DNA of 32,541 bases, taken from Diploschistes diacapsis. Lineage: Eukaryota. Each line of letters begins with the position of its first letter. Within the stretch, counting starts at the first letter, position 1. The stretch spans positions 1 through 32,541 of the forward strand of contig JALAIB010000101.1 in the NCBI GenBank assembly GCA_023645945.1. Direction: 5' to 3'. The position numbers and the translations under genes were made by a program. Below, in pieces: positions 2,164-26,415 of the stretch. The notes beneath the pieces were generated by a model. The model ran no database searches. It was not told the origin of the DNA and was given only the letters and a program-made list of their open reading frames with translations.

Positions 2164-2670
2164 CAACGGTCCGGTTTTTGGATCGCCACAGAAGAGTGAC
2201 ACTGGCAAAGGTGTGTATTTTCTTTGGCCTGGAAAGCGATATAGATGTACGATATACGATATACGTAGTACCTGGACGGTAGGTGATGATGTTCACTTTC
2301 AAACAATGTGCACGAAAAGACGGTGGCTACGGTGAGAGAAGAGCAACCAAGTAGCGCGTTCTGCCATTTACTGCCTTATCAGGCATGAAAAGAAGGGGAT
2401 GTGCTAACGATCGAGCAAGGCTAGACTGTAAGCGAGTAATTTTACCAGCTTATCACTTTATCCTACCGTTAGCGTAGAGCAAGTTATATGAGTTTCACTC
2501 CGACAAAAAACAACCATACGCTAACGATCTGACTCGGCCTGACGCTTTACACCACATGTTTAACCCATGGAAGCTCCTTCAACGCTCCGTCTAACAATGT
2601 AGGACTAAAGTATTCACCCGCTGAGGCGGGCTACTCACAGCTGTGCTACTCGAGCTTTGGAAGGTCATCA

Positions 2671-5094
2671 ATGGGCCTTCAACCAAAGTACGTACGTACA
2701 CGGAGCTCAATGCTCGTGGACCGGCCCCCAGTAGCAAACATGCAGGAAGAGACCCGGCCAGACAGCGAAAGACAGGGGCACCAGGCATCGAAGCTCACCA
2801 TATGCATGATAGACCGAAGCTTTTTGTGTTTTGAGCCACAGGCCCCAAGCCCACAACCACTTCGTGTTGATGTTTCACTCCAGACCGGACCTTCTCACTA
2901 TCCAACTGATGCCTCTTTCAAATCTTTAGAAGCTGTTGCAAACACGCCAGATGGCTCTCCCAAACACCCGGATGGCTCTCGTAATACGTCTTCAACGACT
3001 GCAGATGCATCCAAGGCCTCATATTCTCCGAAGTCTTCAGACGCTCCAAAGACCTTGGATGCTCACAAGCATTCGAACGTTCCAAAGTCGTCAAACGTTA
3101 CAAAGACATCGAATGCTCCAGAGAAAGCAGGTGCTCTAAACGATTCAAACGATGTAGAGTCTTCAGGCCCACTGAAGGGGTCAAGTGCTCTAGAGAAGTT
3201 GGACGCGTCAAGGAACTCAGACGTTCCAAAGTCCTCTGGTGCTTCAAGGTCTGCAGCTGTCCCTAAGCAGGCCAATGCTTCACCCAAAGCCTCAAGGACA
3301 CAGAAGCCAAAAGACTCGTTAAAGCCCTTTGTAAAGCAGAAACGAAAGTTGAATGTGGTATCAGAACCTGGAGTCCGGCATCCACCACCTGGAGTTCCAG
3401 GGTCACCCATTACCGAACCGTCTAAAGTCAATGAACATACAACGTTACCACTCAATGGTTTACAGGACATAGTACCATATCTTTTGCATCCCAGAAAGGC
3501 TGAAGGCTCTGAAGAGCTTGAACTACCCAAAGGGTTCGAAGTGTCGGAAGAAGCCAAATCATTTGAGGCTTATCAGAATAACCTATCTACTAAGTCTCCA
3601 CTCATTCTTATCGCGTCCAAGTCCACACGCCACAATCACGATACCACGTATACGGAATTTCTCAACTCAACGGCTGTAGCTATCAAAGATCCGCATCCAA
3701 TTAGCCCGTCGAAAACCGAATCCCAGAAAATAGCTGCAGCACCGGACAATCTGTTCAAAGCTGCTGCCAGTGTTTCAGAGTCACAGACTCAGAACGCTGT
3801 CGAACTCGCTAACGCTGGTCAGATTTTAGACGCTGCATTAGCAGATGTCATGAAGTATGACGAGGACAAGGACTTCGCTGCAAAGGAGGGCGCGACTGAG
3901 GATGCTGCGGGTAGAAAGCACCGACAACAAGATCAAAAAGGTTCTCAAACTGGTGCGAGTTCTGAAGCTTCTTCAAATGGCATGACGTTCGCGGATAAGC
4001 GAGCTACTCAAGATCCCAAGCCTAGTAGATCTCAAGAGAAGGGAGAAGGTGGTGCAGATGAAGCTGTTGCGGCTGTTCGTACCCAAAAACATACCAAGGT
4101 CGTCCAGTCTTCTAAGGAACGCGCCAGTCGTGCGGGTGAGGATCAGGCGGTTTATTCTACGCAAAGATGCATTGTCGTGGCCCAGCCCTCAGACAAGAAG
4201 CGGGCATTCCCAGATGAGGAGGACCTGAACGCCACTCCGGCTCTAATGGACTTGAAATCCTCATCTTCACCTCCAAAGCGCCAGAAGACAAAGGGGAAGA
4301 TTGCACCACGTACAAGTGGTAGCCGGAGTCCGAGCAAGCAGTCGACACTATCTGAAACATCTAGTTCAAAAGTTCAGGGCTCTCGCATGAACAAAAAATC
4401 ATCTTCTACTCATGACCGCGACAATACAAACGTCTTCTTTTCTACCTCGTCCACCTTAGGCAACCTCGGTAGCAAGTCAAAGAAGATGAAAGACTTACGA
4501 GAGCTCGGCATCAGCAGGCCCGAAGATGTGTCTAAATGCAACATCTTCTGCACCGGCCCCTCCTTCAAGAAAACCCCCAATTTTCTGCACGCCCTAGTCC
4601 TGGGCAAGCCCATCGTCACCGACGCCTGGCTCGAGGACAGCCTAAAGGCCAAGCTCCTGAAAGACCACTCAGCATATTTGGCTCGGGACGTCGTCCAGGA
4701 AAAAGAATGGGCCTGCAAGGTCCGCGAGGCGTCGGAAAAGTTCCGCAACGGCCTCAAGCTGTTTGAGGGCAAGGGCATCGCCATCACGCCAGCCCTCAAG
4801 TCCGAACTGGGAGACAACTACGGCGGCATCGTCGCGGTCGCCAGGGCTGCCGGCGCCGAGGACGTCGTGAGCAGGAGCCCGCGCACTAGGGAAGACGTCG
4901 AGGATGTCGTGTGGCTGGCCAGGGAGAAGGATCCGCTGTTGATGGACTTTCCAGAGGGGCAGAGGGTCTTTGGGAAGGACTTGATTTCGATGAGCATTCT
5001 GAGGGCGAAGCTCGATCTGGAGTCGGAGGAGTTCCGTCTGGACATTGAGGGTGTGAAGGAGCCGCCGAAGAAGGGGAGGAGGAAGAAGGCTTGA
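2671..5094 (+). CDS. BRCT-domain protein with a long Ser/Lys/Pro-rich disordered region, possibly Mdb1/MDC1-like; true N-terminus unresolved
   Basis: 807-aa ORF. The C-terminal CNIFCTGPSFKKTPNFLHALVLGKPIVTDAWLEDSLKA matches the BRCT pattern (KT.KFL.AL..G.PIV...WL..S). A second BRCT-like unit (LFEGKGIAITP) and a basic NLS-like end (PPKKGRRKKA) follow. The frame is open back to 2533, so an upstream exon is possible. Confidence 0.75.
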   Translation: MGLQPKYVRTRSSMLVDRPPVANMQEETRPDSERQGHQASKLTICMIDRSFLCFEPQAPSPQPLRVDVSLQTGPSHYPTDASFKSLEAVANTPDGSPKHPDGSRNTSSTTADASKASYSPKSSDAPKTLDAHKHSNVPKSSNVTKTSNAPEKAGALNDSNDVESSGPLKGSSALEKLDASRNSDVPKSSGASRSAAVPKQANASPKASRTQKPKDSLKPFVKQKRKLNVVSEPGVRHPPPGVPGSPITEPSKVNEHTTLPLNGLQDIVPYLLHPRKAEGSEELELPKGFEVSEEAKSFEAYQNNLSTKSPLILIASKSTRHNHDTTYTEFLNSTAVAIKDPHPISPSKTESQKIAAAPDNLFKAAASVSESQTQNAVELANAGQILDAALADVMKYDEDKDFAAKEGATEDAAGRKHRQQDQKGSQTGASSEASSNGMTFADKRATQDPKPSRSQEKGEGGADEAVAAVRTQKHTKVVQSSKERASRAGEDQAVYSTQRCIVVAQPSDKKRAFPDEEDLNATPALMDLKSSSSPPKRQKTKGKIAPRTSGSRSPSKQSTLSETSSSKVQGSRMNKKSSSTHDRDNTNVFFSTSSTLGNLGSKSKKMKDLRELGISRPEDVSKCNIFCTGPSFKKTPNFLHALVLGKPIVTDAWLEDSLKAKLLKDHSAYLARDVVQEKEWACKVREASEKFRNGLKLFEGKGIAITPALKSELGDNYGGIVAVARAAGAEDVVSRSPRTREDVEDVVWLAREKDPLLMDFPEGQRVFGKDLISMSILRAKLDLESEEFRLDIEGVKEPPKKGRRKKA
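3010..3279 (+). repeat. Degenerate coding 18-bp tandem repeat, about 15 units, hexapeptide consensus P-K-x-S-(D/N/G)-(A/V)
   Basis: Units read SKASYS PKSSDA PKTLDA HKHSNV PKSSNV TKTSNA PEKAGA LNDSND VESSGP LKGSSA LEKLDA SRNSDV PKSSGA SRSAAV PKQANA. DNA consensus is near CCA AAG TCN TCA RAC GYT. Confidence 0.75.
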
Positions 5095-5613: not shown

Positions 5614-7281
5614 TCACCAATGACAAAGCCCCCCCTCGTTCTCATCGACCCCCCACGTGCCCGCAAGACCCACGATCTCCACCACGCCATCATGATGCTC
5701 CCCGACCTTCCCGAGCTCCACGCCCTTTTTCCCCTGTCCGACACGTCCCCAGCCGTCAGCTCCGCCTCCTGCTCCCCAACCGCCGTTGATTCCCGGCGCC
5801 GCCTTATCCCCCAGCAGTCTCCTCGCCCACGCATCGATGGCTGGCTCGCCCGTCTCGTCGCGCGCCTGCTTGAGGAAGGGGATGAGCGCGGTGCCGCCCG
5901 TGCCGCGCATCTTGCTCCTCCCGCCTCTCCTTCCGTCCACCATCCCGCCATTCCCATCCCCTCTCTCGCCAGCGCCCAACGTAGTCGCCGTCGCAATGTT
6001 CCTCCGTACCGGCGCATGCGTCGGACTCAGGCCACGCTCCCCGGCGCGGTTCTCCCGGCTCTTGACGATGATGTAGCGCGACACCATGGCGATGTGCTTG
6101 TCGCGCAGGCTGCGCAGCATGGCGAGCGCAGCGTCGTATGCGAGGCTCAGGGCGCGGTCGGCGGGGCGCGAGAGCACGAAGGGCCGGATGTTGGAGGTGG
6201 CGGTGACGTCGTGCAGGAAGCGCGCGTGCGGGCCCGGCATGTAGGCGCGCATCTCGTGGATGAAGTTGTGGGAGGGGCCTTGTTGGTCGGCGGACTGAGG
6301 GACGGACGAGGGGGAAGACGAGCTGTGCGGGTTGTGGGGATGCGATGGCGGCGGCGGCGGCGGCGGCCCAGTTCCTGTGGGCCGGTGCGTGACGCCGAGG
6401 ATTATGTCGAAGAACTGGATTAGCGAGCTCTGGGCGTTGGAGCCGCCGCCGTATTGACGGTATTTTTCCGCGCCCGAGCCGTCCTGGTAGATCACGCCGT
6501 TGGGGAGCCCAGCGTCGGCCATGTTCTTAGAGCCGGCGAGGAAGGGGCGGATACGGTGGTAGAAGACGTGCGGGTCGCAGTGCTCGTACATCCTGTTCAT
6601 CAGGGTGCCGAGCTCGTCAAGACGCTCGGCGAGGAGTTGGAGGGCAGCCGTGACGGTCTCCGAGTCGCCTTCGCGGGCGGCGGAGATGGCGTTGACGAGC
6701 AAAGGAATAAGGGGGGCGCCGCGGGCCTCGATGGCGACGGAGATGAGGTAGAACCAGGATTCGTCGAGGGAGCCGGTGAAGGTGGTGAGAGTGGCGAGGT
6801 TGTCGAGTGTGTTGATGGGTTCATCGACGAAGATGGGCTTGAAATTCCAGAGGCATACCCCGGCGTAGGTGGCGACCGGGGGAAGCTCGAGGATGGAGCA
6901 AATTTTCAAAAAGGGAATGGAGATCGAAGGAGGGATTCGCTGAGCACGTGTCAGTAAGGGGGAAGCCAAGTGATGAGTCGGCGAGCTTACTTCTGCGGGT
7001 GTGTCACCGCCCCAGATGTAGCCGTGGGTGATGAAGGCTAGGAGCATGTATGCCCGCCGCCATTCTGCTGGGTGCATGAGATGTGATGTGGAGAGAATGG
7101 GCAGCTTGCGCACCACCTCCCTCAGTCTGCGACATAGCAGCAAAGCCTGCAAGTTGCCTGCTATAGCCTCCCATTGGTTGTAGTATGGGTCTGGAAGGAT
7201 CTGAAGTGGTAATTCTGATGGGAGAAAGCCATACTGCTCTGAGATGCCATAGTCCTCAAGGCGAGGCACGGGCGGCAGCAT
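5614..7281 (-). CDS. BNA2: Indoleamine 2,3-dioxygenase (IDO, Bna2 family); exons 7281-6991 and 6939-5614, about 538 aa
   Basis: Motifs include GFLP, ELPPVATYAGVCLWN, FTGSLDESWFYLISVAIE, FYHRIRPFLAGSKNM, YGGGSNAQSSLIQFFD, EMRAYMPGPH, LRDKHIAMVSRYI and RGTGGTALIPFLKQARDET. The ATG is at 7281 (MLPPVPRLEDYGIS). A 51-nt intron 6990-6940 reads GTAAGC...TACTGAC...CAG. Confidence 0.96.
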   Translation of the reverse strand: MLPPVPRLEDYGISEQYGFLPSELPLQILPDPYYNQWEAIAGNLQALLLCRRLREVVRKLPILSTSHLMHPAEWRRAYMLLAFITHGYIWGGDTPAEVSSPTHHLASPLLTRAQRIPPSISIPFLKICSILELPPVATYAGVCLWNFKPIFVDEPINTLDNLATLTTFTGSLDESWFYLISVAIEARGAPLIPLLVNAISAAREGDSETVTAALQLLAERLDELGTLMNRMYEHCDPHVFYHRIRPFLAGSKNMADAGLPNGVIYQDGSGAEKYRQYGGGSNAQSSLIQFFDIILGVTHRPTGTGPPPPPPPSHPHNPHSSSSPSSVPQSADQQGPSHNFIHEMRAYMPGPHARFLHDVTATSNIRPFVLSRPADRALSLAYDAALAMLRSLRDKHIAMVSRYIIVKSRENRAGERGLSPTHAPVRRNIATATTLGAGERGDGNGGMVDGRRGGRSKMRGTGGTALIPFLKQARDETGEPAIDAWARRLLGDKAAPGINGGWGAGGGADGWGRVGQGKKGVELGKVGEHHDGVVEIVGLAGTWGVDENEGGLCHW

Positions 7282-7820
7282 TACCGGTAACGATAGTTGG
7301 CGATATTCAGCTGATATCACTCAAGTTGTTCGAGATGAGAGTTTAGTGGTCACGTGCACCATTAGAAAAAGCGAGACTGAGCAGCAGGTGTGATCTGTGT
7401 CAAAAAAATGAAAATACGAGAAAACAAATCAGTTTAAGAGTAGTCTACTTATGAACTTGTAGAAAATGGATTGGAAGATGTGATGATTTTATGCTATCCC
7501 TGCAAGCTGGAGATGGAAGAAGTGGGCAAAGAGGAGAGAAAGTATCTACTTAGGTTATGACTCCTTGGGGAGCAAGCAGACTTTATCGGCTTATAAATAA
7601 TATAGAGCATTGTTCACTGTTGTTTCTTGTAATCACATCAAAGGTGAGAAGGGAGAGTACCCTTGGTCCCAATACAAATACACAGCATGGCGCACTGGAC
7701 TCGAACATGTTTTTTCTGCCGGATTTTCCCGCGCTGTTCATCCAGAAGAGACTAAAGACAAACTTCTGGGGGGGCCCAAGCTGAAATATCTACTTGGATA
7801 CACTACAACGAGATCAGATA

Positions 7821-8155: not shown

Positions 8156-11100
8156 TCATCGTGTACTTCTTAGAAAAGAAACCACTCCGTTGCAGTAGCC
8201 AACAATCGACCCTAGTCGCTTGCTTTCCATCTCTTGCAATTCTGTCCATACTCGCAAGGCCTTGGTGACGTCGCAGTGCTCTCTGATGATTTCGCCGTGA
8301 ATCTTCAGGAACACGGACATCCAAGCCTGGATCACCTCGTAGTCTCGCCGCTGCCTCAGACGAGACGAAAGCACCTCGATAAAAAGCATCAGCTCGTTCG
8401 GCGAGCTTGCTGGATCCAGTGACCTAATCTCAATGTCTGCCATCGAGGGTGGCAGCGACTTGAAGTGTGCTATGAAAGCTTTAGGATCCTCGCGTGACTT
8501 GTGGAGTAGTTGTGTGAAGAAGCTCTGTGTGCTGTGGCGCTGCAGAGCTGAAATGCGCGAGCGCTCGGCTTGTGTGACTAACAAGTTGTCGGACCTTTGC
8601 TGGTCGACTCGGCCGTTGTGAAGCTTGTCCAAAGATGGCAGAAAGAATGGCGCTTTCTCTGGAGCTTTTGGTGGCTCTATCGGCTTGTTCCTCGTTGCAA
8701 TCGTTTCGAGGTGCAGAAGCGTCTGCCACCGGGAGCGAGGAACAAGAGAGAGAGTTGTCATGTCTGCATTAAGTTGATCCAGGGCCGAAGGTGCAGAATC
8801 GCTTGTCTGATGCCCGTTTTCACGCTGAGGCTCCTCGAGCGCCGCAGCCAGGAGTGTTTCGCCTCCTTCTCCGGATGCTGTTGGCATGGTCACTGTCTCG
8901 ATTGTGTCCTCGTCTATCTGCCGTACTGGAACGTGAGCGAAGAGTGACCGATTACTCCATATATTGATGCCGATCGAATCTGCGTGGGCTGTAGCAAAAA
9001 ACTCTCCAGTCGACGAAAATGCTAGGGCTGTACATAGCCCTGCAACTCGGATCGCGTCGATGAGGTGGCCTGTGGGAAGATCCCATACGCGTATGATTGA
9101 GTCCATGGAAGCCGCGACGATCCATCGACCATCTTCAGAGAAGCAAAAGTCTGTTATCTGCCCCACGCAGCCCCAGAGTTCTCTGACGAGTCTTTGAGTC
9201 TCGCAGTCAATCACCCTAATGGAAAGATCATCACAGCTGAGCGCAATCAGATCGTTTTGTCGCTGGATTCTTGACGCGGTAATCGGTGTCGATGAATGCA
9301 TTGCCATTTCGTGGCGAAGCGAACCTGTTGCAAAATCCCAAAACTTAAGCTTCCCATCAAGACTGCAACTGAAGACTGTCTTGTTCAAATTGTCAACCAT
9401 AATGCCCGTAATGCCTCGAGTATGCTTTTGTTTATCCTGTCTTGCGTCCTCGCTATATCCATTGGTAAGGATATTATGGCGAACCTGTAATTTGACCTTT
9501 CTAGCCTGGGCCGGCGTCAAAGAGGCTGGAAATTGCTGCCGGTGCTTGCCTGACTGCAAATTGAACATGTCAATCCTGCCACCGGCGGAGCCTACTAGTG
9601 CAAAAGTACCGCAAGCTGTTATTGCAACACTCTAATTTCGTTAATCTCGAGGACGCAGAATTGTTGGCTCGGAAAGTATACCTTAACTTCGGTCCCATCT
9701 TTGGTTTCGAAAGCCCATCTCCCCGCTTTCTTTCTCCCCCAGAACCAGGTCCTAGCATACTTGTCCCCTTTGTGCCCTGTCACGATGCTCTCCCAGCCTG
9801 ATGGTAGGGTATCGGAAGCACCTCCCTTGGTCTTGCCTTTGGCAACATTTGCCCATACACTTCCACCGCCCGTGGAGGCATCCATTCCACCATCACGGTT
9901 CAAACAGCAGGCCATGCAGGTGATTTCCGGAGCTTTGAGATCTTCGAGAGTGCTACGGGTTTCAAGATTTGTGTTAATGCCTAGAGCGACCAATTTCCGA
10001 GCCGCCTTCAGAACATTACCTTGGCTGATTTCGGTGCTTTGCCCGTCACGCCTGAGGCTCCAAGCCCAAAGACTTCGGTCTTGGCCAGCACTGATAAGCC
10101 ATTTGCCGATGGCATCTGCACCATCTGCTTCAGTTGGAGCGAACAGAAGCTGCGTGACAGGCGCTGCGTGACCACTTCTACTATGTAGGCCGGTAGGGAT
10201 GGATGTTTGGGCATTCTCGTGAAAAATCCAGGATTTTAAGGCGTTGTCACACCCAGCTGTAATTACAATGGGCTGTCCGGGTAGAAACTCTAGCCCTGTG
10301 ATACCACTGGCCGATCCTGTCTCGTTTGTCAGTGGTGGGTAATGTGCGTTTCTCAATACGCTCATCACACGTCCACCGTCATTGAGATCCCAGAAAGTGA
10401 CGTCTCCGTCTTCGATGCTAGCTGTAGCCATAACACCTTCTGCGTGACCATCTTGTCCAGCACCCAGACCATCAGTGCGGAACGATATTGACGTGATTCT
10501 GGTTGTAGCGAGTGAGGATGTGTTTAGCATAATGATCTCTGTATCTCTCCTGACGTCGTGTATACTCAATGAACCATCAGCACGAGCAATCGCGAGAAGG
10601 TTAAGAGCTGGCGAGGGTTCCAGCGCTGTTACGGAACCCGAGGTTAAAGCAGGAGGCGCTAGGGTATATACCAACTTCCCCACGCTGATGTTCCATAGCT
10701 CCACGCTCCCATCTGTCTTTCCAACAAAGATCTTATTGAGCATTGTGGGCATGGTACACAGGGAGCCCGTGAGCTTTTCATCCTGATGACCGAGCTGGGA
10801 GATAAGGGGAAATATCGTGGTGTAATGTTCGTATGTATCAGATTTCCAGACTTCAATGCGATTCGAACAGCAAGCAACTATCCAGGAGCCGAAGATGACA
10901 AGCTTGCGAACGCTTTCAACAAGACCGTTAGATAATTGAAGCTCTCTAATTTTCTTCCCCCTTTTATAAACCCAAATGCCGCCTTTACGATGGATCTTCC
11001 CTCCTCCCCACGCTGCGAAGACTCTGTCCTTCCATGCTAATGTTGCGGTTATCGGCACAGGCGTCTCCGGTCTGGAGACAAAAACCAGATTCAGTCCTCT

Positions 11101-11354
11101 CCGAAGATCGTAGGTATGCAACGATTTCCCAATAGTGGCAGTGATTTGAAACGTGGTTTTCCCCAGAGGTATGGAAGTAAACGGTACCTGGGTGGGAGAT
11201 ACAAGTCCTACAGTCTGTCAAATGTTAAAAGCTTCAGCAGTGCTTTGGGTGTGCTTACCCTGTAAGGCGCGAAAATCCGAGAGGCTTGAAAAGCCTGACC
11301 AACAGGCGCTTCAAGCTTCTGCCGCTTCGCTGTTGGCTCAACAAAAGAAGGCAT
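8156..11354 (-). CDS. UTP21: U3 snoRNP/SSU processome WD40 protein Utp21 (WDR36); exons 11354-11259, 11214-9682, 9631-8156, about 1034 aa
   Basis: It starts SRIFAPYR/TVGLVSPTQVPF, carries many WD repeats, and has the Utp21 C-terminal motif LSLVPRSRWQTLLHLETIATRNKPIEPPKAPEKAPFFLP. Introns 11258-11215 (GTAAGC..CAG, 44 nt) and 9681-9632 (GTATAC..TAG, 50 nt) join the three frames cleanly. Confidence 0.96.
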
Positions 11355-12706: not shown

Positions 12707-15700
12707 ATGGAGATGGTTCCTAGCCCCAGTAGCCAGACCAGTTCTACTCAATTCAGATCGCCTCATATGGAAGCACAGACCACACCGACTACTATAATTG
12801 ACAACACACCTGCGCTTTCGTCTGCATTCACGTTGCCTACAGGTATGTCAAGATACCCGTGCTTCTCGTTCTCACTATCACACCCGGCTGACGTGGTTAC
12901 ATGATAGGAGCCATGGCTACAGGCAAAACCTCCGCACAAGGTGGTTCAGTATCAGTCCTCAAAGGTGCAGAGCATCGTGATTCGGGGTCACTTCCACGCT
13001 TGCAAAATCCTGGGCCAGACAGGCGTTCCAGGAGTAGGACCTCACGTCGGCCGAGTGTGAGCACAGGAGCTAGTAGTGCGAGTCCGAATAATTCTGAAAG
13101 AACGGAGCAGCAGCAGCGTGAGTACATTTCTGCAGCAGAACCCCGAGCCACACAATACCCCAGTACTTCTCTGACGTAGGGAAGATAAAGCATCATTAGG
13201 CAAGATAGGTGTATGTGCACTCGATGGCAAAGCACGAAGCAAACCGAGTCGAAACATTTTGACAAGGCTTCAAAACAATGGTGACTTCGAGGTCGTCGTG
13301 TTTGGCGACAAAGTGATTCTGGATGAGGGTAAGCGCACCGCCAGCTGGGAGCGTAATTGAGCTAATGTAGTTTTCGAAGCTGTGGAGAATTGGCCATTAT
13401 GGTATGCAGTGACGGTCACAAAAGATGTATAAAACCTCAAGTTACTAACCCCTCCTTGTAGTGATTATCTAATCTCATTCTTCTCTGAGGGCTTCCCATT
13501 AGACAAGGCAATTGCTTACGCCCAACTTCGGAAGCCCTTCTGCGTCAATGACTTGCCTATGCAGAAGATCCTCTGGGACCGTCGACTATGCTTGAGAATC
13601 CTTGATCACTTGGGAGTCCCTACGCCTCAGCGGCTAGAAGTCAATAGGGATGGAGGGCCAACTCTTGAATCCGAAGGCCTTGTGGACCATGTCTACCGTA
13701 CAAGTGGTGTGAGGATGAGGGGGCCTAAGTCCGAAATCGACAAGACCGTCCTCACTAGAAGTGTGGAGCTTTCTGAAGACGGCGATACACTCATAGTGGA
13801 TGGCGCATCGATGAAGAAGCCGTTTGTTGAGAAGCCTGTAAGTGGCGAAGATCACAATATTTGCATCTATTTCCCAAAAAGTAAGGATGGCGGTGGTGGC
13901 AGAAGGCTCTTCCGCAAGATAGGTAACAAGAGCTCTGAATGGGATAGCAGCCTAATCGTACCTCGCGCGATAACAGAGCAGTCTGAAAGCTACCTTTACG
14001 AGCAATTCCTTGACGTTGAGAATGCAGAGGATGTTAAGGCTTATACCGTGGGTCCTGACTTCTGCCATGCAGAGACGCGAAAATCGCCCGTTGTAGATGG
14101 GTTGGTAAGAAGAAATACTCATGGTAAAGAGATCAGATATATCACTAGTCTCTCGAAAGAGGAGGCTGCAATGGCTGCCAAAATCGCAACAGGGTTCGGT
14201 CAGCGCATTTGCGGCTTCGATTTACTGCGAGCCCAGAATACAAGCTTCGTCATTGATGTGAATGGCTGGAGCTTCGTGAAGGACAACAATGAGTATTACG
14301 ACAAATGTTCTCGAATTCTTAAGGATATATTCATTATGGAAAGAGAGAAACACGATCGATCGAGACCTACAGCCGCAGAAGTTACTAGTGACGGTCAAAC
14401 TGACGCAACGGTCAGGCCAAATGTGCCTCATCACAGAGAGACGCTGAAAGGCCTCTTCAAGTCCCCCAGCTTGTCCAAATTGAAAGAAACGCTTCATCAT
14501 CGCAAAGCTGGTAACTCTACTGATGCCTCATACGCGACTACGCCTGTGTTTTCGACACCTACAACAGAACGCTTAGATCCTACTACAATAGCCTCTCCAG
14601 CCTCGCATATCGATGAGAGAGAGGTCTTGTCTCCTAAGTCTAACACTGAAGCTGTAACCTCAGGGGTGATGTCCTCTTCTGCCGATCATCTACCGGCAGA
14701 GCACATACCCCCACCAGCCGCAAAGCATTCTTGGAAGCTGAAAGGCATGGTGGCAGTCATCCGACATGCGGACCGAACGCCCAAGCAGAAGTTCAAATTC
14801 ACATTCCATACGCAACCATTTGTCGACCTTCTGAAGGGACATCAAGAAGAGGTGCTGCTAAAAGGTGAAGATGCTCTCGGTAGCGTACTAGATGCAGTCG
14901 ATCAAGCGATGAAAGAAGGCAAAGAAGATCATACTAAGCTGCGGCTTCTTAAAACTACGCTTGTCAGAAAGGGGACGATGAGCGGCACAAAGGTACAGAT
15001 CAAGCCAATGTTTAGAAAGCGGAAGCCAGAGGAGATTGCCGTGAAGCTTGGTCCAAAAGGGAGGGAGCCTGGAGAAAGGGATAACAGTTCCAAGGACGAG
15101 ATTACCGAAGAAACCTTGCACCGCGTCCGTACTGGCAGAAATGATTCGCTGGCCGGCGTGACCCTATCTCGTTTTGCTGCAGCAGAGAATGGCTTGGTAC
15201 TAGACAAGCTTCAACTGATCCTGAAGTGGGGCGGAGAGCCGACACATTCTGCACGCTATCAATCGCAAGACCTAGGAGAGAACATGCGGAACGATCTTCT
15301 CCTCTTGAACCGGGACATACTAGGGGACGTAAGAGTCTTTACAAGCTCTGAGCCTCGAGTAAGTACAAGCGGTAAGACTAGCTACCTAGATAAGCAATAG
15401 TCCCATACTAATCGTGATTCTAGCTCAAATCTGGGCAGCTTCATTCTTAAACCAGAAGGATATTCCCGACAGCTTTATATCCGTGAGGAAAGACCTCCTG
15501 GATGATTCAAACGCTGCAAAAGATGTTGCAGACAAGGTCAAGAAGAAATTGAAGGGTCTACTAAGAGAGGGCCACGAAGCACCCAGCCAATTCGCATGGC
15601 CTCCCAATACACCCGAACCGTCTGTGGTCGTCCGTCAAGTTGTCGAGCTCATGCAATTCCACCGCAGGGTAATGCATCACAACCTCAACAAAGTCAACCC

Positions 15701-17081
15701 CGCCACCTCCTCCTTTTCTGCTATTAACGCCTCAGAAACCTCCTCCGCCTCCACCTCACCCTCTTCAACCCGATCTGTCTCCCAATCCGAGCATGTTTCC
15801 CGCATCCAAGCCCGCTGGTGCACTAACGAAGATGCCGAACTCTTCAAGGAGCGCTGGGAGAAGCTTTTCACCGAGTTCGCCGACACAGAGAAGGTCGACC
15901 CCAGCAAGATCTCAGAGTTGTACGATACGATGAAGTATGACGCGCTGCACAACCGACAGTTCCTCGAGTGGGTATTCACTCCTAGCGCAGCCATTCTCGA
16001 AGAGATATCGCTAGAGGAAGAAGGAAAGAGGTCTTATGACGACCCTTCGACAGTCCGGAAAGCACCGCTGGAGAAGGTCTTGGGTGATGCCGCGCTCGAA
16101 GAACCAAAAGCAATCCCCATGGACGTCCCAACCCGAAAACAAACAGTTTCCCAGAGCAATGCTGGTGAGCGTATCAGGCCGCAAGATAGTATAGCCCAGC
16201 GCATGGGCTTTCGAAGGAAATCCGTCTATAATACGCCCATCTCACCGGGAACGATGGCACCTGATGGTGTTGCACACAGCAACAGCAATACCGTGGCAGA
16301 TAGCTACTTCAAACTTTTCAATGGCAACGGCCCGACGCGCACGAAGCAGGACAAGCGCCTGACGAGGTTGCGCGAGCTCTATCGCCTATCGAAGATCCTG
16401 TTCGACTTTATATGTCCGCAAGAATACGGGATCTCGGACGCCGAGAAACTAGAGATCGGATTGCTTACTTCTCTCCCGCTGCTCAAGGAAATAGTATCCG
16501 ACCTAGAGGAGGTGCAGGCCTCGGAAGGCGCGAAGAGCTTCATCTATTTCACGAAGGAGAGCCATGTTTATACCCTTTTGAACGCCATACTGGGAGGTGG
16601 TATAGGGATTGGCGGCAAGACGAAGATCAAGAGGAATGCGATACCGGAGCTAGATTATCTGAGCCAAATCGTGTTCGAGCTGTATGAGGCAGAGGACAAG
16701 GAGGGCGGCGCTTATACCCCGGGTGCAGCAGGCGCAAGTGCTAGCAGCAGCACCGGCTCAGCATACAGCTATTCGATAAGGATATCTATCACGCCGGGCT
16801 GCCACACGCAGGATCCGCTGGACGTGCAGCTCGATAGCCGGCACTGCATAGGTTGCGCGCCGCGGCGGAGTCTCACGGCACACCAGGATTGGAAGGAAGT
16901 TATCGAGACGCTGAGGAGGAAGTTTGATAGTGTCAAGCTGCCAAAGAGCTTCCTGGCTGTGAACCTGAGTGATTGGCATAAGAAGGAAGGGAGGAGTCGC
17001 GAGGAGGTGAAAGAAGTCCTTGAACATGAGGTTGAGGGGGAGGAGGGAAAGAGAGTAGAGGAGACAGTAGCGAGAGGATGA
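12707..17081 (+). CDS. VIP1: Inositol hexakisphosphate/diphosphoinositol-pentakisphosphate kinase with histidine acid phosphatase domain (Vip1/Asp1/PPIP5K); exons 12707-12842, 12908-13117, 13191 (or 13185)-13328, 13380-13401, 13462-15371, 15424-17081, about 1357 aa
   Basis: Motifs include [78 protein letters not shown], the phosphatase motif [10 protein letters not shown] and FTKESH. Five introns have consistent phases. The start codon is the least certain part. Confidence 0.95.
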
Positions 17082-22381: not shown

Positions 22382-24130
22382 ATGGAGGGCCCGCCTCTTC
22401 CTCTATCGTCGCCGACATGGAGGCCTCCCACTCAGCGTCAGTCGTCTGTTGGCACACCGCACCCAAGCGAAAAGAGCGCTTCCAGACTGCCAGCGTTAAA
22501 CTTCTTGGATCTCGAAAAGATCAAGAAGGAAGCGCAGGACTTTGAGCATAAGCATCCGACCGCAATCACCACAAGTGCTCCAGCAACATCGTCGGGGCCT
22601 CAACACCCGCTGGCAGGCCCTCAGAGCATGTACTCTGGTCCTCCACCTCCGTATTCGTACCCCTCGTCAGCGGCCCATGCGTCCCTGGCATTTTCAGGCT
22701 ATATCTCTCCACCGGACTCCAGACGTCTATCTGACGCCGACAAGGAGCCGCAGCCTCATCGCCAATCGCTTCCCTCGATCCATGAAGCATTGGGGAAAGA
22801 CCAGTCGATTCTCTACTCCGGTCCTCCAGCCGGAGCCACTGTTGCCACGAAGAACTCACATTCCGCTACGGCTCCAAGTCCTGGCACTCCTATTCCGCGT
22901 TCTCATCCAGAAACTATTTTATCCGGGCCACCCAATCCGTACGCCTCCTCGCAACTTCCTTCCCCGTTCCCTGGTGAGCCCACGGACAGCCGAATGCATC
23001 CAACCTTTCGGACGAGCTCAGCCAGTGAAGAGCAGCCGCCGTTATCCTCGGGATTACCACCCCCAGATTCGGCTCCTGCTACCGTTCACAATACACCAGC
23101 CAGCCCAGCGCCCCCACAAACACATCGCAGCCCTCGCGCAATCAACGCCCCGCAGCCATCAAACGTCTATCATTCGACCCCTCAACCAGTTCAACCGATC
23201 CAGGCACCTCAACCAGTAACCGCGCAGCCAACCTATCCGTCTCATCCTCCAGCCTACGCTTATCCACCGGCGCCTGGTCTTCATGCTGCATACTCGCACT
23301 TTCCTTCGTCCACGCCTTGGCGTTCGGACGGGTTTGAGATCGACAGGGCGGAGGAGGTACGGAAGGCAGCATCCAAACAAAGCTCGGGCTCTCAATCCTA
23401 TGGTGAATCTGTCAAAAGGCATCTGGATATATTCGATCTGGAGACTTCGCTTAACGAAGTGAGTTCCGGTGTGCCACCAGCCCGAGTCGGAACTAATATG
23501 GCTACAGATTGCCGAAGGTAGTGGCCGTGCGCTCGATTTTTCCAGACATCACGGTGCGAAGGCTCATCAAGCGCAACGATCTGGCCCTCTTGCTGCGCTG
23601 CCGACACTTGCCGAATGTGACGACATGATCGGACGGCAGAAGCTCGTGCTTGCTGCGATGGGCCGCATTCGGGACGTTGTGGTCGCCCAACAGCAGGCCC
23701 TTGCGGAACAGCGAAGTCGAAACGAAGCCAATAAAGCGAGACAAAGCGAACTGAGCGAGGACTCATCGTCTTTCTCCGAAAAGCAGGAGGGTGGTGGAGG
23801 ATTTGCTGGTGCGGATGCGAAGAGGCGGCGTGGCGTATGTATAACCTTGTGCAGGTGACCGCATTCAGCTCACCCGCCCGATAGCGTAATGCGCCTCCGG
23901 GACGATGCCACAGCTGTAATAGAGCAGAGACGCCTGAGTGGCGGCGAGGACCTGACGGTGCACGTACTTTGTGCAACGCTTGTGGGCTCCGTAGGTTTCA
24001 CCTATCATTACCTTGTTCTGTTGACCGCTAACATCTTCTGGACTATGCAAAGCTTACCCGTAAGCTTGGGCCCAAAGCATCTATCGGAAGCTCGAATCTT
24101 CGACCAAAAGAGGCCGCCCCTTCCTCATGA
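22382..24130 (+). CDS. nsdD: GATA-type sexual development transcription factor NsdD (SUB-1/Pro44 family); exons 22382-23458, 23508-23834, 23885-23990, 24042-24130, about 532 aa; last acceptor is non-canonical
   Basis: Motifs [22 protein letters not shown] and [20 protein letters not shown] precede the C-X2-C-X18-C-X2-C finger [33 protein letters not shown] and the tail HYAKLTRK...NLRPK. Introns are 23459-23507 (GTGAGT..CAG), 23835-23884 (GTATGT..TAG) and 23991-24041 (GTAGGT..TGG). Confidence 0.93.
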
Positions 24131-24503
24131 GCATTTTCCGTTTAACGACCCCACAATCTTCCGGTATATATATGATGGTTTTGGCATGGCATGGCGTTGG
24201 GACTTCTCTGCATCAACTAGTCGGCAACCCATTACACGCATACGACTCGGCGTTTTGGGACCTTGGGATTCAGTCTCGAATCGTTCGACATTTTCAACCA
24301 GATTTTTGTTGAGGGCAACCTTACCCATCCTCAGTCGCCCTACGTTTTTCTCCATCGTCATTCTCCAAGGCATTCCATGGGATGCCTTCCACATCCCTAT
24401 GGTCCATACTAGGCCCCCGCTTTCGCCCGTACACGACTTGTTTATTTGTTTGGCTATGATACCATTCTACGATCCGGTTCATATTTCCTCGCCTTCTAGG
24501 CCC

Positions 24504-24527
24504 TCGCCTAGGACTTCGCCTAGGACT
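24504..24527. repeat. 12-bp tandem duplication (TCGCCTAGGACT)x2 in the probable nsdD 3' UTR
   Basis: Read directly; a degenerate third copy precedes it. Confidence 0.7.
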
Positions 24528-26415
24528 CTTGAAAGATTTGAGAGTACGGTGTGTTACTAAGATATGGCGTTAATTACACTATTGGCGTCCAGAAAGAGAT
24601 GGAAAAGGTTACGATCAAGCGCCAATGGAGTCGGTCGTTAGCTTGTGGCTAGGATATAAAGGCTTCGGACTGATACACAGTTCGACGTCTATTGTATGTC
24701 CAAACTTAGCAGGGAATTGAAACTTTGCACAGCAGGGCGTGCGCGGAAATGGCCATGTTACGTCCACCTTCGTCTTGGATCACCTGCTCTTCCGAGCCCG
24801 TATGGGCACCCAAATGGGATTTTCTTGCTCGTATTGGAAGAGTACCATCCAGAGCAGCCAATCGCGATGATCATTAAAGTCTTATTTACACCGAGTTTCG
24901 AACATTTGGGCTGCCGAATCGCTTCAGTTCTTTTTTCTCTGCAGCTGTCTTCTTAGCTTCTCACAACGCCTCTACACCCTCCTGCTTCTCTTCTTCCTCC
25001 TTGCTTTTATTCCCCACAATACTCTAGACGGTTCAATGATCGATCCTTGTTTTTCTTGTGAACCAAGTGATGCCATTGCCGGAAAGCTGCATGGCCTCTG
25101 TGTTAATGTTGGCAGGGCCGTTTAGGAGCGCGTCGACGAGGTTACCACGACCGCAAACGGACGGAGAAAAACCTCGCTTACTCCAATGGCACTCTGGTTG
25201 GGGCAAGGCACTCTCATTTCAGCTTATGTGACGTGTCCTGTGGGATCTCGCAGCTGTCATTCTTGCAGCCCCCACAAACCAAAGCTTCCTCTTCGACCCC
25301 TCGGGCGAATGAATGGCACGGCACGCAAGTCCACGAAGGTGCCATGCAGAAGGGCTCGAAACATGATGCAGTGGAATCTGGGTAGTTCGGCTCCTTCAAT
25401 CCGCCAAAGCCTTGCAGTAGCTCTGTTATGCAACTAAATGCCGTAAGTTTACCGGAAGCCCTTCCAGCCAAGATGCGTAGCCAGCGATTGCCTAAAGTGG
25501 GCATCGGAGGCTGCCTGCAGCTGTCAAAGTACATATGCTGCAACACTGCAAACAGCAGCGGAGCTTCAACTACCTTTCTGCCTTGAGCCAGCCCTTCTGG
25601 CGTATCCAACCCGCTTCTTCACCTCCCCAACATCATCCGATAAAATACATGTTGCCCCTTGAAATTCCTTCATGCCAACAACCAGATCGATCCCCGCGTC
25701 ACATGCCCTCCCTACCTTTCTTTCCTGCACGATCCCCTCCTGCAAATGCAAGTTTGACAGCTGTTACTACCCGGCCAACCCTAATTAAGAAGGTACGGAT
25801 AGAGAGTTGATTGACAGCTTTTGCTAGCGTTGGCTACAGTATAGCAAAACTCGGTTAAAAACCCCACTTTGGAGGGGGAAAATATTGTACTGACAGCTAA
25901 GCAGCGAGCGAGCCTTGTCACCACCCTTTGTGTATATATCACATCCCGCTCGCTTACTGTTGACCTACAAAATAATTCGAGCCGTCCCAGCCCTGAGCAA
26001 CATGCAACGACCTCCTTCTTTTGACTTCGCTTTCCCTTCAGTGCCTCGCCTCGCCGTATGAAAGCGTGCTCTAAGCAGCGCTGGACATGCGCTTTTGCAC
26101 ATACCATCGCGTGATCACCAACCTGGTTCCTGGCAGGGTGTCAGTGATGCCGATAGTTTTTTCACCTTCCACAGCATCTGATTTTTTTCATCTCGAGGCT
26201 GTCGAGGTCGCCGATCTTACCCTTGGATTCAAACCGCTTGGGATGACCAGATCGCACAAAGTTACGAAGGCAACTCACCCCTCCAAAGTCGGAATCCAAA
26301 CAAATACAGCACATACTTTTCATCCGCTGATAGCTTATCCTTGAAGAAGCAAAACCTAGTGGGGCTCGCGCGTGACGGGCTGTTTGTTGATTGCATAGAC
26401 TTCAGGCTACGACAG

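Follow-up and report, generated by a model that had tools for sequence, protein, structure and literature searches.

Background

Introns that begin with GT and end in GG form a known but rare class. According to the excerpts available of the two reports considered here, Ganoderma lingzhi contains 38 GT-GG introns with RNA support, which make up 0.041% of its splice-site pairs and are the third commonest non-canonical type (PMC11590231), and in Fusarium graminearum GT-GG is one of the non-canonical site types that turned up in 28 genes when RNA-Seq gene models were checked by hand. Sanger sequencing confirmed seven of these 28, the site types of those seven being unstated in the excerpt (PMC3577648). 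Here we analyze a 32,541-nucleotide contig of Diploschistes diacapsis (GenBank assembly GCA_023645945.1, contig JALAIB010000101.1, forward strand; hereafter the window), which carries a gene for a GATA transcription factor of the NsdD type at 22382-24130 on the + strand, with four exons and 532 codons. The third intron of this gene ends in TGG and, judged by comparison with its relatives, joins the GT-GG class as an apparently functional member.

How the 3' splice site is recognized has been described structurally: in the passages available to us, the last intron G pairs with the G at position +1 of the 5' splice site; the A at position -2 pairs with the branch adenosine (bioRxiv 10.1101/212811). 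A search on nsdD splicing, not itself aimed at non-canonical acceptors, listed no title or abstract opening on such an acceptor, and the passages on NsdD and on intron positions that we have from PMC7457929, where the names NsdD, SUB-1 and BcLtf1 are used, do not mention such an acceptor.

Results

Intron 3 occupies positions 23991-24041 (+ strand) and is 51 nucleotides long, near the lengths of introns 1 and 2 of the same gene (49 and 50 nucleotides). It opens with the donor GTAGGT (23991-23996), which has a consensus-type extension, contains the branch motif CGCTAAC at 24026-24032 (GCTAAC at 24027-24032, with the branch adenosine at 24031), and closes with TTCTGG. Nine pyrimidine-rich bases follow the motif, and 10 nucleotides separate the branch adenosine from the 3' end. 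Measured against a canonical U2-type GT-AG intron, the donor and the branch motif fit, whereas the 3' terminus does not: the acceptor dinucleotide is GG (24040-24041, within TGG at 24039-24041, + strand), with G at position -2 where AG introns have A. Joining at these borders brings the C at 23990 together with AC at 24042-24043 to form a histidine codon, followed by YAKLTRK. If the intron is retained, translation runs into a stop (TAA, 24029-24031). The first AG past the branch point, at 24051-24052 (AAG at 24050-24052, + strand), lies 21 nucleotides from the branch adenosine and yields a protein ending in CGLPYP before a stop; it is likely to be the acceptor that competes.

Between 23900 and 24127, 965 joins preserve both the reading frame and the tail encoded by exon 4, and every one of them was enumerated. 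A single one, the GT..GG join at 23991-24041, restores CNACGLHYAKLTRK. Only four of the 965 have GT or GC at the donor and AG at the acceptor, and each of these loses cysteines of the zinc finger, HYAK, or both. The tail HYAKLTRK shows no variation across the 14 full-length orthologs that were aligned, which were taken from 17 matches bearing CNACGLHYAKLTRK after the short or partial sequences P0009, P0016 and P0017 had been left out. In addition, the intron sits at the same phase-1 spot within the histidine codon as the introns of 27 out of 77 related loci. Because of this invariance and this shared intron place, the join at 23991-24041 is more than a chance restoration of the reading frame. 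The first-pass annotation of the window had placed the donor GTAGGT directly after CNACGL-C and the CGCTAAC motif nine nucleotides before the next exon, had held that HYAKLTRK requires an exon start at 24042 after TTCTGG, and had described retention (TAA at 24029) and the use of the AG at 24052 as truncating; the sequence agrees on every one of these points, and the enumeration gives the exon start at 24042 as the only solution.

Several other ways of reading the intron were considered. Shifted borders are ruled out by the unique join and by flanking bases that differ from one another, and neither U12 nor AT-AC splicing applies, such ends not being present. A-to-I editing would act in the wrong direction, as it cannot make A from G. 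Retention with read-through of the TAA was rejected, as 17 residues would enter the finger.

To view the acceptor in an evolutionary context, metagenome contigs were scanned with the ortholog alignment, which gave 79 loci, 77 of them fitting the pattern of a finger end followed by YAKL. The intron is absent from 50 of the 77, with histidine encoded by an uninterrupted CAC or CAT; the 27 loci that have it at the identical place represent 17 distinct sequences. These orthologous introns are 48-60 nucleotides long, carry a CTRAC branch motif, and end in AG without exception (eight TAG, eight CAG and one GAG). When the last branch-like motif is taken, the branch adenosine lies 10-14 nucleotides from the end in 15 of the 17; in one of the other two the distance is 26 nucleotides, and in the other the regular expression finds no motif. 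Two of the orthologous introns, at loci L028 and L029, also have the donor GTAGGT. The best metagenome locus shares 69% nucleotide identity with the window over 444 bases, so that the panel serves as an outgroup only: since all of its loci are distant from the window, they show the ancestral state and not the time of the change.

P0003, the nearest relative outside, is a raw open reading frame (ORF) that continues through intron 3; in its frame the final three bases of the intron make up a glutamine codon, which aligns to the tryptophan codon TGG of the window. Whether that codon is CAA or CAG, P0003 therefore has A at position -2. On the evidence of these orthologous introns, the GG acceptor is specific to the lineage of the window and is derived by a YAG-to-TGG change. 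A search of the protein collection with the out-of-frame ORF at 23859-24557, in which the acceptor TGG is read as tryptophan, matched only the window's own ORF.

The region 23300-24400 was compared with contigs of four sequencing runs, all of DNA, which we call X1, X2, X3 and X5. X1 is an independent contig set from Logan for the probable source run, which is labeled as a lichen metagenome; it has a depth of 96 and shows no differences in 1101 bases. In X2, from another study, one contig at depth 88 spans the whole stretch, with 23 substitutions in the 1101 bases and 10 gap letters. In X3, a rock metagenome likewise from another study, record 5 (depth 5) extends over 23817-24399 and has 11 substitutions in its 583 bases. 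The contigs of X5 gave no match to 23300-24400. Positions 24040 and 24041 are unchanged in X1, X2 and X3 record 5, all of which read TGG, and nearby positions differ from the window at 23994 (X2 and X3), 24009 (X3) and 24097 (X2). X2 and X3 have eight states in common against the window, and TGG is therefore carried by two lineages, about 2% apart. The TGG change is not private to one strain.

The difference at 23994 falls in the donor, where X2 and X3 read GTAAGT, with A at +4 in place of the G in the window's GTAGGT. As the donor varies inside the lineage that shares GG, it is not a fixed compensating change.

Since both lineages carry TGG, the coding changes between them most simply postdate it. 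The 678 covered coding bases contain 13 distinct substitutions, 11 of them synonymous and two conservative replacements (Ala to Val and Glu to Asp); if one third of changes were synonymous, the probability of at least 11 among 13 would be 2e-4. Exon 4 can be read in this frame only through the GG acceptor, and all four of its differences (24097, 24103, 24106 and 24127) are synonymous third-position transitions (p about 0.013). In X2 and X3 there are no coding indels relative to the window in the 678 bases, whereas the 270 bases of 3' flank after the stop have 10 substitutions and nine indel places, a density that predicts about 2.9 indels over 86 bases. Signs of relaxed constraint, namely an excess of replacements, frameshifts or stops, were not seen in these 678 coding bases of the two lineages. 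On this pattern of substitution the gene is probably not dead, and a dead allele is unlikely.

Two further features emerged from the same contigs. Downstream of the gene, in the 3' untranslated region at 24172-24186, the copy number of a TGGCA unit varies, with one additional copy in X2 and two in X3 inserted after 24181. X3 also contains, as record 6, a 5.5-kb contig with a more distant homolog that matches 23890-23996 with 19 differences in 107 bases; all the differences listed for it are at third codon positions. This homolog lacks intron 2, the loose end before 23890 continuing as coding sequence, and it departs from the window right after the intron-3 donor, and therefore has an intron at the same place.

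The gene model into which intron 3 fits is otherwise ordinary. With the GT-GG join assumed for intron 3, the joined coding sequence has 1596 nucleotides, or 532 codons, and no internal stops. Exon 1 (22382-23458, + strand) begins with ATG at 22382 and is an open frame of 359 codons; it is collinear with P0126, a protein of Aspergillus clavatus named in its source 'GATA-type sexual development transcription factor NsdD', at 31% identity (E 4e-17), and the two end alike in LE(T/S)SLNE. Intron 1 (23459-23507, + strand, phase 0) is canonical, with GTGAGT, ACTAAT and a terminal CAG, and its removal joins the frames as SLNE/IAEGSG, matching the ortholog consensus. The 109 codons of exon 2 (23508-23834, + strand) encode a conserved region specific to the family, which is 48% identical to that of P0126 (E 6e-29) and 53-87% identical to those of Lecanoromycetes orthologs. 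Its best relative is the raw ORF P0003 at 87%, and its closest named relatives belong to the lichen-forming Lecanoromycetes Xylographa, Calogaya, Villophora and Psora, at 53-66%. Intron 2 (23835-23884, + strand) is likewise canonical, with GTATGT, GCTCAC and a terminal TAG, and contains small deletions in X2 and X3, consistent with non-coding sequence.

Exon 3 (23885-23990, + strand) encodes the GATA zinc finger up to CNACGL, plus the C that is the first base of the histidine codon. It matches Pfam GATA PF00320 with an E value of 2.4e-13 and 49.9 bits (cutoff 26.8), and the finger, which is single and C-terminal, has the form CX2CX18CX2C (CHSC, 18 residues, CNAC). Exon 4 (24042-24130, + strand) supplies the AC of the histidine codon and the basic tail of the finger, ends with TGA at 24128-24130, and has 60% identity with the P0126 C-terminus (E 2e-5). 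Exons 1, 2 and 4 thus match P0126 in the same order, a match that takes in the family-specific region lying upstream of the finger, and a profile built from the 14 lichen orthologs matches several proteins named NsdD in their sources with E values of 1e-128 to 1e-139. Taken on sequence comparison, the gene is the NsdD ortholog of a lichen-forming ascomycete, a label justified by the alignment of its exons to source-named NsdD, by its Lecanoromycetes relatives and by the lichen-metagenome label of the source. We take Pro44 and Ltf1 to be names of NsdD in other fungi.

Annotation of this gene proved unreliable well beyond the window. Among the 44 database relatives P0003-P0046, 20 have no zinc finger in the predicted protein and five more run into intron 3. 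The relatives drawn from ENA and Logan are raw ORFs that read through introns, and several NCBI gene models of lichen genomes end in intron 2, lose the frame over the finger, or leave the finger out. Across lichen fungi, mis-annotation of the 3' end of NsdD is widespread and extends to genes whose splice sites look canonical. Four finger-skipping or frame-shifted models (P0012, P0020, P0023 and P0041) were considered as further cases of non-AG acceptors and rejected, because their codons either fit false donors combined with a normal AG/AC acceptor or leave the third positions undecidable. A GT-GG intron lies beyond what standard gene finders can model, so that a truncated or finger-less NsdD will be predicted for the species.

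Elsewhere in the window, a 399-residue open frame at 499-1698 on the - strand matches the fungal pheromone receptor STE2 (PF02116, E 8.3e-87), which therefore puts a mating-pheromone receptor gene about 21 kb from the NsdD gene. Between the two, Pfam matches identify a BRCT-domain protein (2533-5094, + strand), an indoleamine 2,3-dioxygenase (5614-7320, - strand, E 2e-162), a Utp21/WDR36 protein (8156-11217, - strand) in two ORFs with an intron between them near 9630-9680, and an inositol pyrophosphate kinase of the PPIP5K/Vip1 type (13433-17081, + strand), also in two ORFs, separated by an intron at about 15360-15423 with GTAAGT, ACTAAT and a terminal TAG.

Discussion

We consider it probable that intron 3 is a working GT-GG intron, derived by a YAG-to-TGG change and probably spliced with lower efficiency. 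Supporting this reading are the unique join, the normal geometry of the intron, the TGG shared by two lineages and the continued coding constraint. That the intron is a real GT-GG intron was also one proposal of the first-pass annotation; it stands as the best-supported reading, with the unique join, the derived TGG and the constraint in its favor, although that support is indirect.

The mechanism we propose takes intron 3 to be an ordinary short U2-type intron whose acceptor was altered from YAG to TGG in the lineage of the species. With its donor intact, a strong CTAAC branch site, a pyrimidine-rich spacer and a typical length, the intron would still offer all that the spliceosome requires to assemble, and in the second catalytic step the trinucleotide would dock at the usual distance of 10 nucleotides from the branch adenosine. 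There the last intron G could still pair with the first intron G, while the change of A to G would weaken the contact of the -2 base with the branch adenosine. The last G being kept, and this acceptor being nearer to the branch adenosine (10 nucleotides) than the next AG (21 nucleotides), ligation at 24041/24042 would persist, probably with reduced efficiency. Both the use of the GG acceptor and its efficiency are what we infer from the sequence. Competition would come from the AG at 24052 and from retention, and the protein made by either route would stop directly behind the fourth cysteine. The amount of correct mRNA would suffice to keep the full-length factor of 532 amino acids under selection. 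The HYAKLTRK tail is encoded and constrained; its attachment to the finger depends on use of the GG acceptor.

The change could instead have abolished correct splicing, with the AG at 24052 or retention taking over and the basic tail being lost, which would leave a fixed hypomorphic or null allele and a lichen lineage that lives with a crippled NsdD, for example by mostly reproducing without sex. We judge this unlikely, although model systems come near to requiring AG, the AG 21 nucleotides past the branch point is within reach, and the change is unique among the sequences compared, all 17 distinct orthologous introns having AG and the nearest relative having A at -2. A null allele predicts an untranslated exon 4 that varies irrespective of frame, yet the two lineages about 2% apart that share TGG differ in exon 4 only by synonymous changes (four of four) and by no indel, while the adjoining 3' flank has 10 substitutions and nine indel places; over the covered coding sequence, too, synonymous changes outnumber replacements by 11 to two. 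The narrower version put forward in the first-pass annotation, a loss-of-function allele that arose recently in a single sterile strain, is disfavored by the presence of TGG in two lineages and by the coding constraint since their split. The same annotation had also allowed for a base-call error at 24040, and a sequencing or assembly error hiding a true A there has a negligible probability: X1 agrees with the window at depth 96, and X2 (depth 88) and X3 (depth 5) read the same G while differing from the window at 23994, 24009 and 24097, which refutes that suggestion.

Choice of the 3' splice site might also be relaxed throughout the genome, for instance through a variant of the Prp8 alpha-finger or of a second-step factor. 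There is precedent in the available text of a yeast study, where a single change in the Prp8 alpha-finger loosens the requirements at positions -3 and -2 (PMC12707134), but we regard such a variant as very unlikely here. The other two introns of the gene end in CAG and TAG, and introns of neighboring genes, read by eye and with approximate borders, end in AG at about 15360-15423, at 13328-13380, at 13404-13461 and, on the minus strand, at 9680-9630.

A number of considerations weigh against a working GT-GG intron. The junction 23990/24042 is inferred from DNA, and the nearby canonical AAG at 24050-24052, 21 nucleotides from the branch adenosine, could capture the larger share of splicing events. 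Mutating any one of the invariant nucleotides at the intron ends impairs mRNA formation in yeast (bioRxiv 10.1101/212811, passages available), where non-YAG sites are normally rejected (PMC12707134, likewise in part). The samples have their own limits: contigs conceal rare variants, and X3 has a depth of only 5. The selection test deals with few events, 13 coding differences with four of them in exon 4, and four further differences that were counted come without listed positions, namely a single one in X2 and another three from short pieces of X3 over exon 1. Finally, if the samples belong to one recombining species, some of the flanking differences could predate TGG.

A more ambitious proposal, in line with the low-efficiency gate on sexual development suggested in the first-pass annotation, is that the weak GG acceptor is put to use: by rendering productive splicing of the DNA-binding finger inefficient or dependent on conditions, it would set the ratio of full-length to finger-truncated NsdD and thereby tune or gate sexual fruiting-body development against vegetative or asexual growth in the lichen symbiosis. 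This is a speculative extension that we hold to be improbable; if it were true, the truncated isoform, ending in CGLPYP or in retained intron sequence, would keep the 504-residue N-terminal part and could compete with the full-length factor. For splicing biology, the locus offers a natural A-to-G change at position -2 of an acceptor, fixed and with the downstream exon under selection, for which the AG-bearing orthologs serve as controls. For lichen biology, the affected gene is a regulator of sexual development, and a tie to reproductive mode is not drawn from these data.

Set beside the natural GT-GG introns of G. lingzhi and F. graminearum, as far as the excerpts describe them, NsdD intron 3 is alike in being a short U2-type intron whose donor is a normal GT and whose acceptor is GG, and in belonging to a rare minority within genes that are ordinary in other respects. 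It differs in that theirs are supported by transcripts and intron 3 by comparison, namely by the derivation from AG, fixation in two lineages and a constrained downstream exon. A further difference, as far as those excerpts go, is its place within the DNA-binding finger of a regulator of development. Yeast reporters with engineered non-YAG sites (PMC12707134) and the structure of the P complex (bioRxiv 10.1101/212811) pose the same question about the -2 position of the acceptor, but the reporters are artificial Saccharomyces cerevisiae mutants that, in the parts available, cover GAG and UCG and not UGG, whereas the GG of NsdD is natural and fixed in a filamentous ascomycete.

The protein itself resembles Aspergillus NsdD in being collinear with it over four exons and in having a single C-terminal CX2CX18CX2C finger with HYAKLTRK; it differs in that identity is only 31-60%, and the function in the lichen is putative. 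The other Pezizomycotina NsdD introns agree with intron 3 in position, phase, length, CTRAC branch motif and branch-to-end distance, and differ from it in the acceptor, which is TGG in the window and AG in all 17.

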